Of a stretch of 64,000 bases of DNA, positions 1 through 34,084 are shown in pieces. The notes under the pieces were generated by a model. The model was not told where the DNA came from. It ran no database searches and saw only the letters and a list, made by a program, of their open reading frames with translations. The translations under genes were made by a program, and so were the position numbers. Each line of letters begins with the position of its first letter. Positions within the stretch are counted from its first letter, which is position 1. The DNA comes from Escherichia coli (GTDB lineage: Bacteria > Pseudomonadota > Gammaproteobacteria > Enterobacterales > Enterobacteriaceae): assembly GCF_046105845.1 (NCBI RefSeq), contig NZ_CP151004.1; one strand, written 5' to 3'.

Positions 1-379
1 TACTGCTGGTCTGCTGTTGTTGCCAGGCTGCTTCCAGTTTTTGCAGCATCCCGGTAATGCGTGACTCCTGATACGGTTTGAGAATGTAGTCAAACGCTTC
101 CAGTTCAAATGCTTCTACCGCATGTTCTTTCCACGCGGTGATGAACACAATAAACGGTTTATGGGCGAACTGGCTGATGTTTTGCGCCAGCAACACACCG
201 TCCAGCGACGGAATATTGATATCCAGAAAAATGGCGTCGACGCGGTTATGCTGCAAAAACTTCAACACGTCCAGACCGTCGTCAAAGGTGCCGACAATCT
301 CCATCTGGCTGTGCTCTTTAATTAGCCAGCTCAGTTCCTGTTGTGCCAGGAATTCGTCTTCAACAATGATGACTTTCAC
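1..379 (-). CDS. ypdB: LytTR-family response regulator, N-terminal receiver part (3' end outside window)
   Basis: Minus-strand ORF starting GTG at 379 (VKVIIVEDEFLAQQEL...) with receiver-domain motifs; immediately downstream of ypdA as in the K-12 ypdABC operon. Confidence 0.85.
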   Translation of the reverse strand, partial: MKVIIVEDEFLAQQELSWLIKEHSQMEIVGTFDDGLDVLKFLQHNRVDAIFLDINIPSLDGVLLAQNISQFAHKPFIVFITAWKEHAVEAFELEAFDYILKPYQESRITGMLQKLEAAWQQQQTSS

Positions 380-393
380 AATATCACTCCGGC

Positions 394-2091
394 TCAAAGC
401 AATAACGTAGCCTGTGAGGCGACTGGGGTGCGTTGGTTAGGAATGTAAAACGCAATTTCCGTCCCCGGTTCCAGGCGGCGGATATGCAGCCCCTCGCCAT
501 ACAATAACTTCACGCGATGATGGACATTCAGCAGGCCAATTTTATTGCCCGGCATTTCGTTCGCTTCGACCCGCTCAATCACCTTTGGATCGATGCCGTG
601 CCCGGTATCCCGCACCGCAATGCGTACCCGATTACCGCACTCTGCAACGCTGATGGTGACAACGCCTTTACCTTTGCAAGGCTGAATACCGTGGACAATG
701 GCGTTCTCCACCAGCGGCTGGATCAGCAGGCTGGGAATGCAGCAATTCACCTCTTCATCAATATCATAGATAACCGTCAGCTTGTCGCCAAAGCGGGCCT
801 GCTCAATGGCAATATAGTCTTTAATTTGATACAGCTCTTTTTTGATATCGATTTGCTCATCATCTTTTAATTCAATGTTATAGCGCAGATAACGCGACAG
901 ATTAAAGATCAGCTGGCGAGCGGTATCCGGATTCAGACGGATTGACGATGAAATAGCGTTCAAAGCGTTAAACAGGAAATGGGGATTAATTTTGCTTTGC
1001 AGGGCGCGAAGCTCTGCCTTATTTGCCATTTCACGTAGCTGCTCGGCGCGTGAAACCTCCAGTTGCGTGGAGATGATTTGCGACAGACCGACCGCCATTT
1101 CCTGTAATGATGACGTAATCTGATGCGCGTGGCAGTAGTAAATTTTCAGTGTTCCGGTCACAACGCCTTTCTCCCACAATGGGATCACCAGCATGGAATG
1201 AATCTCTGGTGTGCGGTGGGCTTCATCATTGTTTTTAATGATGATTTTTCCGTAATTCATCGCCTGTCGGGTAGTCGGGCTAATGAAGTCATCGCCATTC
1301 TGATAGTTGTGTTCACCCACGCCAACATAGGCCAGCACATGATCGGTATTGGTAATCGCCACCGCATCGGCGTGAATATCATCGCGGATAATTTCACAAA
1401 CTTTGCGTAATGACTCGCTATTGACATGGCGAAACAGCGGCAGCGTTTTGTTGGCGATATCCAGCGCCAGCTTGGCCTGCCGCGCGGCGCTGGCCTCTTT
1501 TTCGCCCTCAACGCTTTGTACCAGCAACACAATAAAGCCGATACAGACGCTGCCGAGGATCATTGGAATCCCGATTTTAGAGACGATATCGATCCCCAAC
1601 GCGGTAGTTGGTGCCCAGACAATCACCAGAATCATGGTCAACGTTTCACATAACATGCCGCCGAGAATACCGACGCGCCAGCGCTGTGCTTTAGGGATTT
1701 TCAGGTTGATCCAGCCCGATATACAACCCGCCAGAATGCTGGTGATAAAGCAGGGGATCGCCGTCACGCCGCCGATATCAATTAAATAACGGTGAATACC
1801 TGCGATCACGCCGGTAATAATGCCTACCCACGGGCCAAACAGAATTCCGCCTGACATCACCGCGATAATACGTACGTTCACCAGCGAGCCTTCTACGGGA
1901 ACGCCGGACCAGGTGCTGAACAGGGCGAACAGCGAGAAAATGGCGGTAACGGCGAGCAGCTCTTTCGGTGAGTGTGCCGACTTGTGCAACAGTTCGCGAA
2001 ACAGGCGGATACGGATGAGAAAGAACAGGCAGATAAGCATTAACGCTGCCCGATCGAAGACCGCCAGCAGCATGTTGAATATTTCGTGCAC
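394..2091 (-). CDS. ypdA: LytS-type sensor histidine kinase
   Basis: 565-aa ORF with N-terminal multi-TM region, GAF-like middle and His-kinase/HATPase C-terminus; synteny with alaC and lpxP. Confidence 0.9.
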
Positions 2092-2467
2092 GGGTGACTC
2101 TGAATAAGGATTAAACCTCTATGATAGGTAACCTGAAGGCTGATGACCAGCAGGCCGTTTTTGAGGAAAAACCACAATTTTAAAAGGGGATTGAAAGATA
2201 AATGGTGTATTAGCAATGCATCTCTTGATAATGCACATCTGCTTGGTAAATTTATTGAAATTATAATGTTAATAAAATGAGTGGTAATTTTCTTGTTAGC
2301 GCAGATAAATTTCCTGTTTTTGAAGTGGAGTTCCTCATTTAAAGCCATTGATAAAAATGTTCTAAAACGCTGGACAGACAGAAATTAATCAGGCTATTTT
2401 CAAAACAGCCACCATCGTGGCAGCGTCGCTCGGACGGTCCGGGCGCTAACGTTAATCTGAGGAAATT

Positions 2468-3706
2468 ATGGCTGACACTCGCCCTGAACGTCGCTTTACG
2501 CGCATTGATCGTCTCCCGCCCTACGTTTTTAATATTACCGCTGAACTGAAAATGGCTGCGCGTCGGCGCGGCGAAGATATTATCGATTTCAGTATGGGTA
2601 ACCCGGACGGTGCGACTCCGCCGCACATCGTCGAAAAATTATGTACGGTGGCCCAGCGCCCGGACACGCATGGTTACTCCACTTCACGCGGCATTCCGCG
2701 GCTACGTCGCGCCATTTCACGCTGGTATCAGGATCGCTACGACGTTGAAATCGACCCGGAATCAGAAGCCATCGTCACTATTGGTTCGAAAGAGGGACTG
2801 GCACATCTGATGCTGGCGACGCTGGATCATGGTGACACGGTGCTGGTGCCGAATCCAAGCTACCCCATTCATATTTATGGCGCGGTGATTGCCGGGGCGC
2901 AGGTACGCTCAGTGCCGCTGGTGGAAGGTGTCGATTTCTTCAATGAACTGGAGCGCGCCATTCGCGAAAGTTATCCGAAACCGAAGATGATGATCCTCGG
3001 CTTCCCGTCGAATCCAACCGCGCAATGCGTGGAGCTGGAGTTCTTCGAAAAGGTTGTGGCGCTGGCGAAACGCTACGATGTGCTGGTGGTCCATGACCTG
3101 GCCTATGCCGATATCGTCTACGATGGCTGGAAAGCGCCGTCAATCATGCAGGTGCCGGGTGCACGCGATGTGGCGGTCGAGTTCTTTACGCTGTCGAAAA
3201 GCTACAACATGGCGGGCTGGCGTATCGGCTTTATGGTTGGCAACAAAACGCTGGTCAGCGCGCTGGCACGTATTAAAAGCTATCACGATTACGGCACCTT
3301 TACGCCGTTGCAGGTGGCAGCGATTGCGGCGCTGGAGGGCGATCAACAGTGCGTGCGCGACATTGCTGAACAGTACAAACGCCGCCGTGATGTACTGGTA
3401 AAAGGGCTGCATGAAGCGGGCTGGATGGTCGAAATGCCGAAGGCTTCGATGTATGTCTGGGCGAAAATCCCGGAACCGTATGCTGCCATGGGCTCGCTGG
3501 AATTTGCCAAGAAGCTGCTGAACGAAGCGAAGGTCTGTGTCTCTCCGGGGATTGGCTTTGGCGACTACGGCGACACGCATGTTCGCTTTGCACTGATTGA
3601 AAACCGCGACCGTATTCGTCAGGCGATTCGTGGAATTAAAGCGATGTTCCGTGCCGATGGTTTACTACCCGCCAGCAGCAAACATATTCACGAAAATGCG
3701 GAATAA
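2468..3706 (+). CDS. alaC: glutamate-pyruvate aminotransferase (PLP-dependent class I aminotransferase)
   Basis: 412-aa ORF starting [21 protein letters not shown]; aminotransferase fold motifs; K-12 synteny. Confidence 0.9.
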
Positions 3707-30276: not shown

Positions 30277-30660
30277 TTAGAAGGGAATTGAATCGTCGTA
30301 TTCAGGATGATTTTGATGATTGCTACTTTGTTGCTGTTGGCTGTTTCCTGAAGTTGCAAATCCAATCTTTGCATTCAGTAATTCAAGAGTGATTGATTGA
30401 CCATTTTGCCCCTGATAAACATCAACCCTGATGTTTTCTCCGGTAATTTCTACAATGCCACCTTCAACAAGAACACTACGGTAGTAATCCGCTTGCGCTC
30501 CCGGCTTGGCAAATACAACGGCGCTGTAGTTTGTCCATTCTTTCTTTTTTGTCTGGCGATCGTAATACTGAACGCCAGCACGGATGTTGAATCCGATATT
30601 TTCCCCGGCCTGAAACTCTCTTGCGGGCTTGTTTAGTCTTACAGTAATCGAATGTGCCAT
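30277..30660 (-). CDS. hypothetical early protein (127 aa), possibly OB-fold-like
   Basis: Start ATG overlaps the erf stop (TAATG coupling); product MAHSITVRLNKPAREFQAGENIGFNIRAGVQYYDRQTKKKEW... Confidence 0.5.
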   Translation of the reverse strand: MAHSITVRLNKPAREFQAGENIGFNIRAGVQYYDRQTKKKEWTNYSAVVFAKPGAQADYYRSVLVEGGIVEITGENIRVDVYQGQNGQSITLELLNAKIGFATSGNSQQQQSSNHQNHPEYDDSIPF

Positions 30661-31265
30661 TAAGCAGCCGCTCCTTCTAATTCGTCTCGTCTGATGTTGT
30701 AAACGTCCTGCGCTTTGTGCTGCTCCGGTGTGCCTTCGAGCATCTTCCACGCTTTGGCGAACGCCTGTTTAAGCTCTTCTACGGTGTTTTTCTGCAATGC
30801 TGCGTCAGTGAATGCTTTTAGAACCTGTTCAGATGTAGGTGATGGTTTTGATTGCTTTGCTGCTGCGTTCTGCTGATGTTTATGCTCGTCGGTATCTGCA
30901 TCTTTCGCATCATCAATGCCGAACAAACCATTGAGGCAATACTTGCGTGCATAAGAGCTTGTAGCTCCAGTAACTTGTGCAGAATCCATTCCTTTCTTGC
31001 TTTCTTCCTCTCGTGCAAGGGCGGTTGCTGTATGACTGTTTTCGCCATCAGTAATAGTTGCTGTTGCTTTCACGTAATACCGATCACCAATCAACACAAC
31101 TTCATCGCTGATTGATAAAAACAGGCCATTCAGTAACGGCTTAACGCCTTCAAGAATGTCTTCGCAGCTTCTGTATTTATATTTACCGAATGAGTTGTAC
31201 TGATTCTTTGGCGCGTTCAGATTCTCCTGAATGGCTGCCAGTCTTGCGTAAAATTCTTTGCTCAT
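30660..31265 (-). CDS. erf: ssDNA-annealing recombinase (Erf family)
   Basis: Product MSKEFYARLAAIQENLNAPKNQYNSFGKYKYRSCEDILEGVKPLL... closely matches recalled P22 Erf; ORF track 30660..31295 with an upstream alternative start. Confidence 0.85.
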   Translation of the reverse strand: MSKEFYARLAAIQENLNAPKNQYNSFGKYKYRSCEDILEGVKPLLNGLFLSISDEVVLIGDRYYVKATATITDGENSHTATALAREEESKKGMDSAQVTGATSSYARKYCLNGLFGIDDAKDADTDEHKHQQNAAAKQSKPSPTSEQVLKAFTDAALQKNTVEELKQAFAKAWKMLEGTPEQHKAQDVYNIRRDELEGAAA

Positions 31266-31366
31266 ATGTTTGTTCTCAGAATGGACACGGCCCAAGGAAA
31301 TAACGCTGATTTAATACTTCGACTCGGGACAAATTAAGGCATACCCGCATTCCTTCGCGGTCACCA

Positions 31367-31525
31367 TTATGGCGATACCAGAGAGCTTTCTGCGTGTACA
31401 TGCGTCTCTGTAACTTGCTCTCCTTCACTGTGGTTGCAAGTGACATGAATATCTCCTTCGTTACCGATTAAATCTTTCATCTGACGAATGAATTCTTCGT
31501 CTGACCAGTTATCTGTAAAACTCAT
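31367..31525 (-). CDS. small protein in the position of P22 arf (52 aa)
   Basis: ORF MSFTDNWSDEEFIRQMKDLIGNEGDIHVTCNHSEG... whose ATG overlaps the kil stop (ATGA); assignment by synteny. Confidence 0.35.
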   Translation of the reverse strand: MSFTDNWSDEEFIRQMKDLIGNEGDIHVTCNHSEGEQVTETHVHAESSLVSP

Positions 31526-31674
31526 TTCCTGCGATACCACGGAAGGTTGATAGCTGATTTCATCGCTTTATTTGCTTCAAGCCACATTTTGGAATCACCA
31601 ATAAATCTGGCTATTACTGCTTTGTTTTGTGCCGCACGAAGCATCTGGTGATTAATGGCTATTTCATTTCGCAT
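31522..31674 (-). CDS. kil: Kil-like host cell-division inhibitor (50 aa)
   Basis: ORF MRNEIAINHQMLRAAQNKAVIARFIGDSKMWLEANKAMKSAINLPWYRRK; the FIGD-KM...EA...A-K pattern resembles recalled lambda Kil; lies in the c3-kil-erf order. Confidence 0.45.
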   Translation of the reverse strand: MRNEIAINHQMLRAAQNKAVIARFIGDSKMWLEANKAMKSAINLPWYRRK

Positions 31675-31793
31675 AACGCCTCCAGTTGTTTCTTTGCTGC
31701 TCTGATTAATTGTTTAACTCGGCGTGATAATTCAGATTCGTGCGGGTAGAAAGCGGACATGACGCCGCTACCCGCGAGCTGAAAGTGCATCAT
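31659..31793 (-). CDS. CIII-like protease inhibitor (P22 c3 position)
   Basis: Short ORF MMHFQLAGSGVMSAFYPHESELSRRVKQLIRAAKKQLEALCEMK, resembling the lambda CIII N-terminus (MQYAIAGWPVAGCPSESLLERI...); its 3' end overlaps the kil start. Confidence 0.5.
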   Translation of the reverse strand: MMHFQLAGSGVMSAFYPHESELSRRVKQLIRAAKKQLEALCEMK

Positions 31794-32019
31794 GGGTAAC
31801 TCCTTATATTTGATTGCATAACGAAAACGCCTCAAGTGAAGCGTTATTGGTATGCATATAAAAAAGCCCTCACACTGGAGGGCAAAGAAGATTTCCAATA
31901 ATCAGAACAAGTCGTCTCCTGTTTAGTTACGAGCGACATTGCTCCGTGTATTCACTCGTTGTAATGAATACACAGTGCAGTGTTTATTCTGTTGTTTATG
32001 CCAAAAATAAAGTCCACCG

Positions 32020-33167: not shown

Positions 33168-33818
33168 TTAAGGAAGGTTTGCTAGCTTGGCATCAACGAC
33201 AACGCCAATGATTTTACAGTTCCCATTGATTTCAATCATTGGGTATTGTGGATTGAGTGGTTTCAGGAATTTTCTACCGGCATCAATAACTAACTTTTTG
33301 AATGTCGCCTCGTTTTCTCCTTCAAGTTTGGCGACTACCAGCTTTCCATTACGTGGTTCGACTTCTGGGTCGACGAGAATAATCATCCCCTCAGGAATAC
33401 TCAGTCCTGCCGGGGCAGTCATTGAATCGCCTTTAACGTCGAGCCAAAAAGAGTCTTCAGAACAATCTACCGTTGTGTCGTACCAGTTATCTATTGCACG
33501 CCTATGATATGGCTCTACAGCTTCCATCCAACATCCTGCGCTTACCCAACTAATTAGAGGATACGAACCTCTTGGATCATGCCTGCTGTGATAGGCAATG
33601 TTTGAAAGACTATCCTCTCCTTTCAACAGGTAATCAGGGGAGCACTGCAAAGCCTTGGCTAAGGCCAATAGGTTTTCGCCATTGGGCTCAGTTTCAGATC
33701 GCTCCCATTGGGAAATAGCAACATTAGACACGCCAACCATCTTGCCAAGGGCAGCCTGCCTAATCTTGAGTTCTTTTCTGCGAGCGCGAATACGCTCACC
33801 CATCAGTTGTGTATTCAT
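33168..33818 (-). CDS. c2: prophage repressor (P22 C2 / lambda CI functional equivalent), HTH plus LexA-like peptidase
   Basis: 216-aa ORF MNTQLMGERIRARRKELKIRQAALGKMVGVSNVAISQWERSE... with C-terminal S24-like domain; near-identical to recalled P22 C2. Confidence 0.9.
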   Translation of the reverse strand: MNTQLMGERIRARRKELKIRQAALGKMVGVSNVAISQWERSETEPNGENLLALAKALQCSPDYLLKGEDSLSNIAYHSRHDPRGSYPLISWVSAGCWMEAVEPYHRRAIDNWYDTTVDCSEDSFWLDVKGDSMTAPAGLSIPEGMIILVDPEVEPRNGKLVVAKLEGENEATFKKLVIDAGRKFLKPLNPQYPMIEINGNCKIIGVVVDAKLANLP

Positions 33819-33898: not shown

Positions 33899-34084
33899 AT
33901 GTACAAAAAAGATGTTATTGACCACTTCGGAACCCAGCGTGCTGTTGCTAAAGCACTAGGCATTAGCGATGCAGCAGTCTCTCAGTGGAAAGAAGTTATC
34001 CCAGAGAAAGACGCCTATCGATTGGAAATCGTTACAGCTGGCGCCCTGAAGTATCAAGAAAGTGCTTACCGCCAAGCGGCATAA
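33899..34084 (+). CDS. cro: Cro repressor
   Basis: 61-aa HTH ORF (MYKKDVIDHFGTQRAVAKALGISDAAVSQWKE...) divergent from c2. Confidence 0.85.
   Translation: MYKKDVIDHFGTQRAVAKALGISDAAVSQWKEVIPEKDAYRLEIVTAGALKYQESAYRQAA

Follow-up and report, generated by a model that had tools for sequence, protein, structure and literature searches.

Between the kil and erf genes of an Escherichia coli prophage two short open reading frames overlap in different frames, and the locus raises the question of which of them is a gene, and of whether the tight overlaps that link it to its neighbours are in any way unusual. The DNA analysed, referred to here as the window, is a stretch of 64,000 nucleotides. A sequence-only reading had singled out positions 31367–31793 of it as a string of overlapping c3, kil, arf and erf genes, and had posed the choice between the arf-like frame and a second possible frame. 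The two are termed ORF-A and ORF-B below, and their reading frames, frame A and frame B. The explanation which, taken as a whole, we consider to be very probably correct on the comparative sequence evidence is that both are genuine genes, that only frame B is conserved where the two overlap, and that the 26-codon tail of ORF-A in this region is unselected read-through.

By the same explanation the flagged interval very probably opens the recombination module that a lambdoid prophage carries in its leftward early (pL-type) operon, here on the minus strand. The prophage repressor is of the P22 type, with c2 at 33168–33818 on the minus strand and cro at 33899 on the plus strand. A terminator-like hairpin on the minus strand (31866–31883; GCCCTCCAGTGTGAGGGC followed by a T run) lies upstream of c3; its counterpart in HK97 is annotated as a "putative terminator" before cIII.

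All of the genes described from here on are on the minus strand. The c3 gene (31793–31659) specifies a 44 amino acid CIII-type FtsH inhibitor (MMHFQLAG...; Pfam PF08134, cIII, E=2e-30), and an AAGGAG is found 6 nt 5' of its first ATG. It is followed by kil (31674–31522), the 50 amino acid product of which is a host division inhibitor (PF06301, Lambda_Kil, E=2e-20), while erf (31265–30660) codes for a 201 amino acid single-strand annealing protein (PF04404, ERF, E=2e-44). The CIII, Kil and ERF profile scores are 104.7, 72.6 and 152 bits, against curated Pfam cut-offs of 25, 27.6 and 25, respectively, which places each protein in its family and upholds the c3-kil-erf string as first described. 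Next to erf lies an SSB-like gene (30660–30277; 127 amino acids, C-terminus DDSIPF) matching phrog_44, single-strand DNA binding protein (E=2e-28). In older records the SSB-like gene downstream of erf is labelled Gp40 or "analog of Abc1".

Read from the sequence, stop and start codons overlap or abut at three junctions, each as had been claimed. The kil ATG falls 16 nt within c3 (31674 as against the c3 end at 31659); the kil TGA (31524–31522) and the ORF-A ATG (31525–31523) together form ATGA (31525–31522); and the erf TAA (30662–30660) and the ATG of the downstream gene (30660–30658) form TAATG, this last junction lying outside the flagged interval. Similar arrangements are found in related phages. 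In HK97, where seven successive junctions are listed between cIII and gene 37, four are overlaps, of −16, −4, −1 and −4 nt, and P22 has junction overlaps of −20, −11, −4 and −1 nt. ATGA at the kil/ORF-A junction is also annotated in HK97, HK022 and Sf6, and the 1-nt overlap of TAATG type between erf and the next gene in HK97, HK022 and P22; at one further locus, L095, TAGTG with a GTG start takes the place of the kil/ORF-A ATGA. Compact overlapping junctions are thus the rule in such operons and no local oddity. The overlaps are all real but ordinary, and in the curated genomes of Sf6 and HK022 both overlapping genes had already been annotated.

Overlapping stop and start codons permit coupling of translation through termination and reinitiation. 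A single polycistronic mRNA would carry c3, kil, ORF-A, ORF-B, erf and ssb; c3-kil-ORF-A and erf-ssb are each chained by their overlapping codons and, to judge from the architecture, may be coupled by reinitiation. The three junctions have the ATGA and TAATG architecture of translationally coupled phage and bacterial operons, the likeness being one of sequence only. The ORF-A/ORF-B junction differs from classical coupling in that ORF-A overruns the ORF-B start by 80 nt; reinitiation there is therefore unlikely, and ORF-B would rely on its own Shine-Dalgarno sequence.

ORF-A (31525–31367), which corresponds to Sf6 gene 30 and HK022 gp42.1, specifies 52 amino acids, namely MSFTDNWSDEEFIRQMKDLIGNEGDI and a 26-residue tail, and matches phrog_2123 (E=1e-41). 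The name arf given to it at the outset agrees with its position, since like P22 arf it is a small ORF coupled to kil and set between kil and the gene for the annealing protein, and with a motif of about ten residues that it has in common with P22 Arf (WSDEEFI as against FSDEEFI). Homology to P22 Arf is not established: hhalign returned a probability of 11% (E=0.0026) over 16 columns only, and the match to the PHROG Arf family, phrog_2445, is weak (E=0.011, residues 5–26). By position and short motif ORF-A may, tentatively, be called Arf-like. Its first 26 or so codons would yield a peptide with the conserved acidic motif W-S-D-E/D-x-F-I-R-x-M-K-D-L, and ribosomes translating it would then run on through 26 codons to the first in-frame stop.

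The second frame is real and is displaced by +1 relative to ORF-A, but its extent had been given as 31447–31281 and 55 amino acids; ORF-B occupies 31446–31276, stop codon included, and specifies 56 amino acids (MSLATTVKES...RYFLGPCPF). It is the equivalent of Sf6 gene 29 and HK022 gp42, and matches phrog_1723 (E=9e-36). Six nucleotides before its ATG is the Shine-Dalgarno sequence AAGGAG (31458–31453), which lies within the ORF-A codons N-E-G-D; in divergent loci, including loci without ORF-A, a purine-rich GGAG or AGGAG is present at the same distance from the ORF-B start. ORF-B would thus initiate independently, inside ORF-A, at its own strong AAGGAG-N6-ATG. Gating of this start by RNA structure was considered and rejected: the fold of the region that includes the start (MFE −38.7 kcal/mol) is not significant, with z=−1.3 and 21 of 200 shuffled sequences folding equally well.

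An alignment of relatives had been proposed as one means of deciding which frame is conserved. The relatives informative for the overlap are Sf6, HK022, HK97 and HK620; P22 has neither ORF-B nor the overlap, and lambda is uninformative. Selection was evaluated from Nei-Gojobori counts pooled over all pairs of the six loci that keep both ORFs, these being the present prophage, HK022, Enterobacter phage vB_Ecl_MII_001 and three metagenomic or assembly loci. Across the loci compared, ORF-B is 60–82% identical to that of this prophage. The segments are short (13–26 codons) and the pairs phylogenetically non-independent, which applies to all of the ratios given below. A scan of viral contigs returned 80 loci, all with an identical ORF-B and hence useful for tail variants only; the divergent loci were gathered protein by protein.

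In the unique 13-codon core of ORF-A (W-S-D-E-E-F-I-R-Q-M-K-D-L) frame A has a pS of 0.635 and a pN of 0.192 (pN/pS 0.30), as against 0.296 and 0.295 (1.00) in frame +1 and 0.207 and 0.304 (1.47) in frame +2. This speaks against the proposal that only ORF-B is a gene, with ORF-A spurious and the 78 nt from kil to ORF-B a leader. Such a proposal would agree with the unconstrained tail of ORF-A, with the call of ORF-B alone made by the NCBI automatic pipeline (PGAP) in O111:H8 02-3334, and with the several lineages in which kil is joined straight to ORF-B, a kil-like ORF ending on the ORF-B ATG (ATGA) in Serratia, Yersinia and HK620. Beyond the core itself, however, it is at odds with the retention of ORF-A in divergent Enterobacter and metagenomic loci, where its start still overlaps the preceding stop codon, as ATGA or as TAGTG with a GTG start. 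It is at odds, too, with the recurrence of the N-terminal peptide in HK140 and SEN22, where it is joined to a different acidic tail and precedes modules of the RecT or exonuclease VIII type, and with the presence at the same place in Pantoea and Erwinia of a 49 amino acid ORF which has the related motif FDF(I/L)RALYEM and ends on the ORF-B ATG (ATGA). We consider it unlikely that ORF-B is the only gene.

In the 80-nt overlap (31446–31367) it is frame B that is conserved, with a pS of 0.67 and a pN of 0.22 (pN/pS 0.33), as against a pS of 0.215 and a pN of 0.345 (pN/pS 1.60) in frame A. The variable columns, counted by ORF-B codon position, number 15, 10 and 23, which in frame A becomes 23, 15 and 10, third positions of frame A being the least variable; taken alone, such column counts depart from uniformity only marginally (p=0.07 and 0.05). 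The alignment thus gives a divided answer. The core of the arf-like ORF is conserved in its own frame, and a different conserved frame, which would have counted against that ORF, was found within the overlap only.

True dual coding, in which both frames of the overlap encode a functional and selected peptide, would account for the retention of an overlap of 80–92 nt in four divergent lineages and for the uniformly hydrophilic, acidic character of the ORF-A tails. It is opposed by the frame A ratio and codon-position pattern just given, and by the synonymous divergence of ORF-B, which is alike inside the overlap (0.67) and beyond it (pS 0.72, pN 0.19, pN/pS 0.27), so that ORF-A appears to impose no second constraint. 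Even the Serratia loci that lack ORF-A have frame A open to +80, which indicates that the open tail arises incidentally from the ORF-B sequence, and among sequences with an identical ORF-B the tail variants change freely. Purifying selection in both frames, the mark of an overprinted pair, was not detected in the aligned overlaps, and dual coding is accordingly rated as quite improbable. The invariance of the overlap between this prophage and HK022 was also tried as a sign of double constraint and was rejected, since it marks the boundary of a mosaic patch whose flanks are equally invariant.

It is very unlikely that programmed +1 frameshifting joins ORF-A and ORF-B into one protein of about 82 amino acids, and the two do not have the characteristics of a frameshift pair. 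The idea is suggested by the HK97 record, in which two extra bases fuse the ORFs in frame into the 83 amino acid gp42.1, by several fused proteins of 81–82 amino acids found in public assemblies, including one that was read on 24 contigs, and by two independent indels at one near-palindrome, GCATGTACACGC. The HK97 insertion, however, occurs in none of the 844 matching records of complete E. coli genomes, and gp42.1 was rejected as evidence of natural fusion or frameshifting, the extra bases being attributed either to a mutation private to HK97 or to an error of sequencing. Likewise, the fused variant seen most often, which has lost 1 nt at GCATGTACACGC, is in no full-length match from complete E. 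coli genomes. Points of fusion are dispersed throughout the overlap, as sporadic indels or assembly errors would give, and inspection by eye, as distinct from a formal scan, revealed no slippery or stop-codon-stimulated shift site; nor is the RNA fold of the region significant. The position of the ORF-A stop shifts between +80, +86 and +92 among lineages, ORF-B retains a Shine-Dalgarno sequence, an ATG and a conserved N-terminus that fusion would discard, and the ATGA of Pantoea and Erwinia represents plain coupling.

Finally, the notion that only ORF-A is a gene and ORF-B a chance open frame, which could appeal to the ATGA coupling of ORF-A to kil and to the PGAP call of ORF-A alone in E. coli UTME-2, is refuted by the comparative data on ORF-B, namely clear purifying selection (pN/pS 0.27–0.33), a near-constant length, a conserved start with its own Shine-Dalgarno sequence in eight genera, and its existence in phages without ORF-A (Serratia, Yersinia, HK620 and Salmonella S9-5).

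With ORF-A and ORF-B both accepted as probable genes, the affiliation of ORF-B can be considered. Homologues occur in Enterobacterales prophages of E. coli, Salmonella, Enterobacter, Klebsiella, Serratia, Pantoea, Erwinia and Yersinia, and across these eight genera the N-terminus is conserved. The phrog_1723 family is narrow, with 25 representative clusters at 50% identity among 1.84 billion. Most members have 56 amino acids and nearly all of the wider family 56–62, with outliers of 65 and 73. ORF-B shows no matches in Pfam, NCBIfam or PADLOC, and a profile search against PDB gave a best E-value of at least 0.84. The AlphaFold (AF2) model is a two-helix hairpin (helices 7–27 and 30–51, pLDDT 92), for which Foldseek retrieved from PDB only generic helical hairpins and designed mini-binders (E>1). 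When ORF-B was compared with HkaM of phage HK620 using hhalign, significant similarity was found (probability 96.7%, E=3e-10), and on this profile evidence ORF-B, and with it phrog_1723, Sf6 gp29 and HK022 gp42, is assigned to the HkaM family.

The C-terminus of the family takes the form FLGxxPF-COOH, with G52, P55 and F56 invariant (n=26 sequences). The PF ending, often preceded by Glu or Asp, is present in 63 of the 74 family proteins retrieved, most of the remainder being either truncated or frameshifted or else long proteins that match weakly. At 14 loci, among which the downstream protein is of four types, ORF-B precedes the adjoining gene of the recombination module by 7–12 nt, the distance to erf being 10 nt here. 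These partners are Erf, Rad52-type and AAA_24-type proteins and the Sak4-type ATPase of HK620. Salmonella S9-5 is an exception, in that an endonuclease gene has been inserted between ORF-B and the gene for the annealing protein. A strict link between ORF-B and the C-terminal domain shared by annealing proteins was also considered, and was rejected on two counts: P22 Erf has the domain without ORF-B, and the ATPases of HK620 and of locus L004 have ORF-B or HkaM without the domain.

Stimulation of Sak4 recombineering in HK620 was reported to need ssb but no other of the neighbouring genes, hkaM and abc2 included (PMC5928155), which argues against a strong direct role of the HkaM family in annealing. 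ORF-A and ORF-B may be non-essential accessory factors of a recombination module made up of the annealing protein and SSB. The free Pro-Phe terminus of ORF-B resembles the tips of SSB proteins (DDDIPF; NDYPPF in HK620 SSB; DDSIPF in the SSB of this prophage), and one speculative idea, to which we give a low but not negligible probability, is that ORF-B acts as an SSB-tail mimic. It might dock in the SSB-tail pocket of the phage annealing protein or of host SSB-client enzymes, and so tune the hand-over of single-stranded DNA in phage recombination. Such mimicry, if true, would explain why ORF-B travels with four types of annealing protein, most of them encoded beside an SSB gene.

The 257-nt kil-erf interval is present in 1112 of 5426 complete E. 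coli genomes (about a fifth), in which PGAP annotation is inconsistent: ORF-A only (UTME-2), ORF-B only (O111:H8 02-3334), or neither. The comparison supports calling both, and supplies the starts. What is added here is the frame-resolved selection result, the link between ORF-B and HkaM, and the speculative suggestion of SSB-tail mimicry; the current picture of phage operon organisation is unchallenged. Sf6 gp29, HK022 gp42 and HK620 HkaM are joined as one small family which accompanies annealing proteins of unrelated folds. The HkaM family is a tractable candidate for an accessory factor of Erf/Sak4/Rad52-type recombination, systems that are used for recombineering.

Among known systems P22 arf, an accessory recombination function (Poteete et al. 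1991, as cited in PMC12315714), resembles ORF-A as a small acidic ORF between kil and erf that overlaps its neighbours. It differs in having 47 amino acids, in filling the entire kil-erf gap, ORF-B being absent from P22, and in overlapping erf by ATGA and kil by 11 nt. HkaM of HK620 was at first labelled "arf" on account of its position and was subsequently described as an orphan (PMC5928155). Like ORF-B it is encoded directly upstream of the annealing protein and has a Pro-Phe end, and it follows kil via ATGA; it differs in its length (62 amino acids, 32% identity), in its partner, which is Sak4 and not Erf, and in the lack of an accompanying ORF-A.

The closest relatives are found in HK106, HK97 and HK022, which are 94–98.6% identical to the prophage over the 700 nt around the interval, and in Sf6-like phages, which are 97–98% identical in the kil-to-erf part. 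The junctions of HK97 (genes 44-43-42.1/42-erf) and HK022 (genes 44-43-42.1-42-41) are as in the prophage, and in HK022 the two overlapping ORFs are annotated. HK022 differs in that the central patch of ORF-B has diverged, mostly by changes synonymous in frame B, and in that the ORF-A tail ends at +92. In Sf6 the downstream gene specifies a 235 amino acid annealing protein which, except for its C-terminal domain, is unlike the Erf of the prophage; a near-homologue of this protein, at locus L096, carries Pfam Rad52_Rad22. The order and overlaps of c3, kil, ORF-A and ORF-B are nevertheless the same in Sf6 genes 32-31-30-29-28 (Casjens annotation, AF547987), in which both overlapping genes are annotated and their products are identical to those of the prophage at 98% (ORF-A) and 100% (ORF-B).

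The two reading frames between kil and erf, ORF-A (31525-31367, 52 aa) and ORF-B (31446-31276, 56 aa, HkaM family), both on the minus strand, are joined in phage HK97 into a single protein, gp42.1, by two extra single bases in its GenBank record (AF069529, locus L001; positions 2001-2012, CATGT[C]ACACGC[G]AG). The corresponding site in the window, 31392-31403, has the plus-strand sequence gcgtgtacatgc and lies at an imperfect palindrome, GCATGTACACGC. The two bases are missing from every one of the 844 records that match in complete E. coli genomes; the 2000 record probably contains a sequencing error here, or else a private mutation. Another, independent variant that fuses the two frames, a 1-nt deletion accompanied by substitutions, lies at the same palindrome in loci L106 and L107, where it specifies protein P0045; this variant occurs on at least 24 contigs of draft assemblies. 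The palindrome may be a local indel hotspot.

Automatic annotation with PGAP treats the same kil-erf interval in three ways across E. coli genomes L101, L102 and L103, calling ORF-A alone, ORF-B alone or no gene at all (leaving a 257-nt gap), and in none of these genomes were both frames called together. An unannotated 35-aa ORF (MSFTDNWSDEEFIRQMNKMLNQHKEQEKDDDSDSE) at nucleotides 1201-1308 of the HK140 locus (L099), and in the same position in SEN22 (L100), shares the N-terminus of ORF-A but has a different acidic tail. It is coupled through ATGA to a preceding 56-aa ORF, which is labelled CIII in SEN22 and "hypothetical" in HK140. The module in these two phages is of RecT or exonuclease VIII type, and ORF-B is absent.

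Comparison of window 31172-31276 with HK022 revealed a patch of approximately 70 nt inside ORF-B (alignment columns 172-242) which is about 30% diverged, whereas both flanks are near-identical, a pattern suggestive of intragenic mosaic exchange. The 3' end of ORF-B (EVLNQRYFLGPCPF), which is conserved, may mark the boundary at which different annealing-protein modules recombine.

Just upstream of c3 are two terminator-like hairpins (31866-31883 and 31826-31845, minus strand), matching the "putative terminator" of the HK97 annotation, and the c3-to-ssb string therefore probably requires N-type antitermination.

The last 50 or so residues of Erf (30663-30812, minus strand) follow the pattern ...EQVLKAFT..A....EELK.AF..AW..L.G..EQ.KA..VY.IR..ELE.AA, which recurs in seven other loci (L005, L095, L097, L094, L096, L086 and P22 erf, L003). 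Since this homology spans three catalytic cores, namely Erf, Sf6 gp28/Rad52-type and AAA_24-type ATPases, unrelated recombinases have a portable C-terminal domain in common. The presence of this domain is not strictly tied to that of ORF-B.

The HK97 and HK022 records list the gene following erf (30277-30660, minus strand) as Gp40 or as a "likely analog of P22 Abc1", and PGAP calls it "hypothetical". Its product hits the PHROG SSB family (E=2e-28), and the terminal residues, DDSIPF, form an SSB-type tip. The C-terminus of ORF-B (31276-31284, minus strand) was compared with proteins P0058-P0071 and HK620 HkaM (L105, 5754-5942). Every intact family member ends in Pro-Phe-COOH, often preceded by Glu or Asp, and the P and F codons vary synonymously, so that conservation acts at the protein level. 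This ending resembles the SSB tips DDDIPF and NDYPPF, and that of this prophage's own SSB-like gene.
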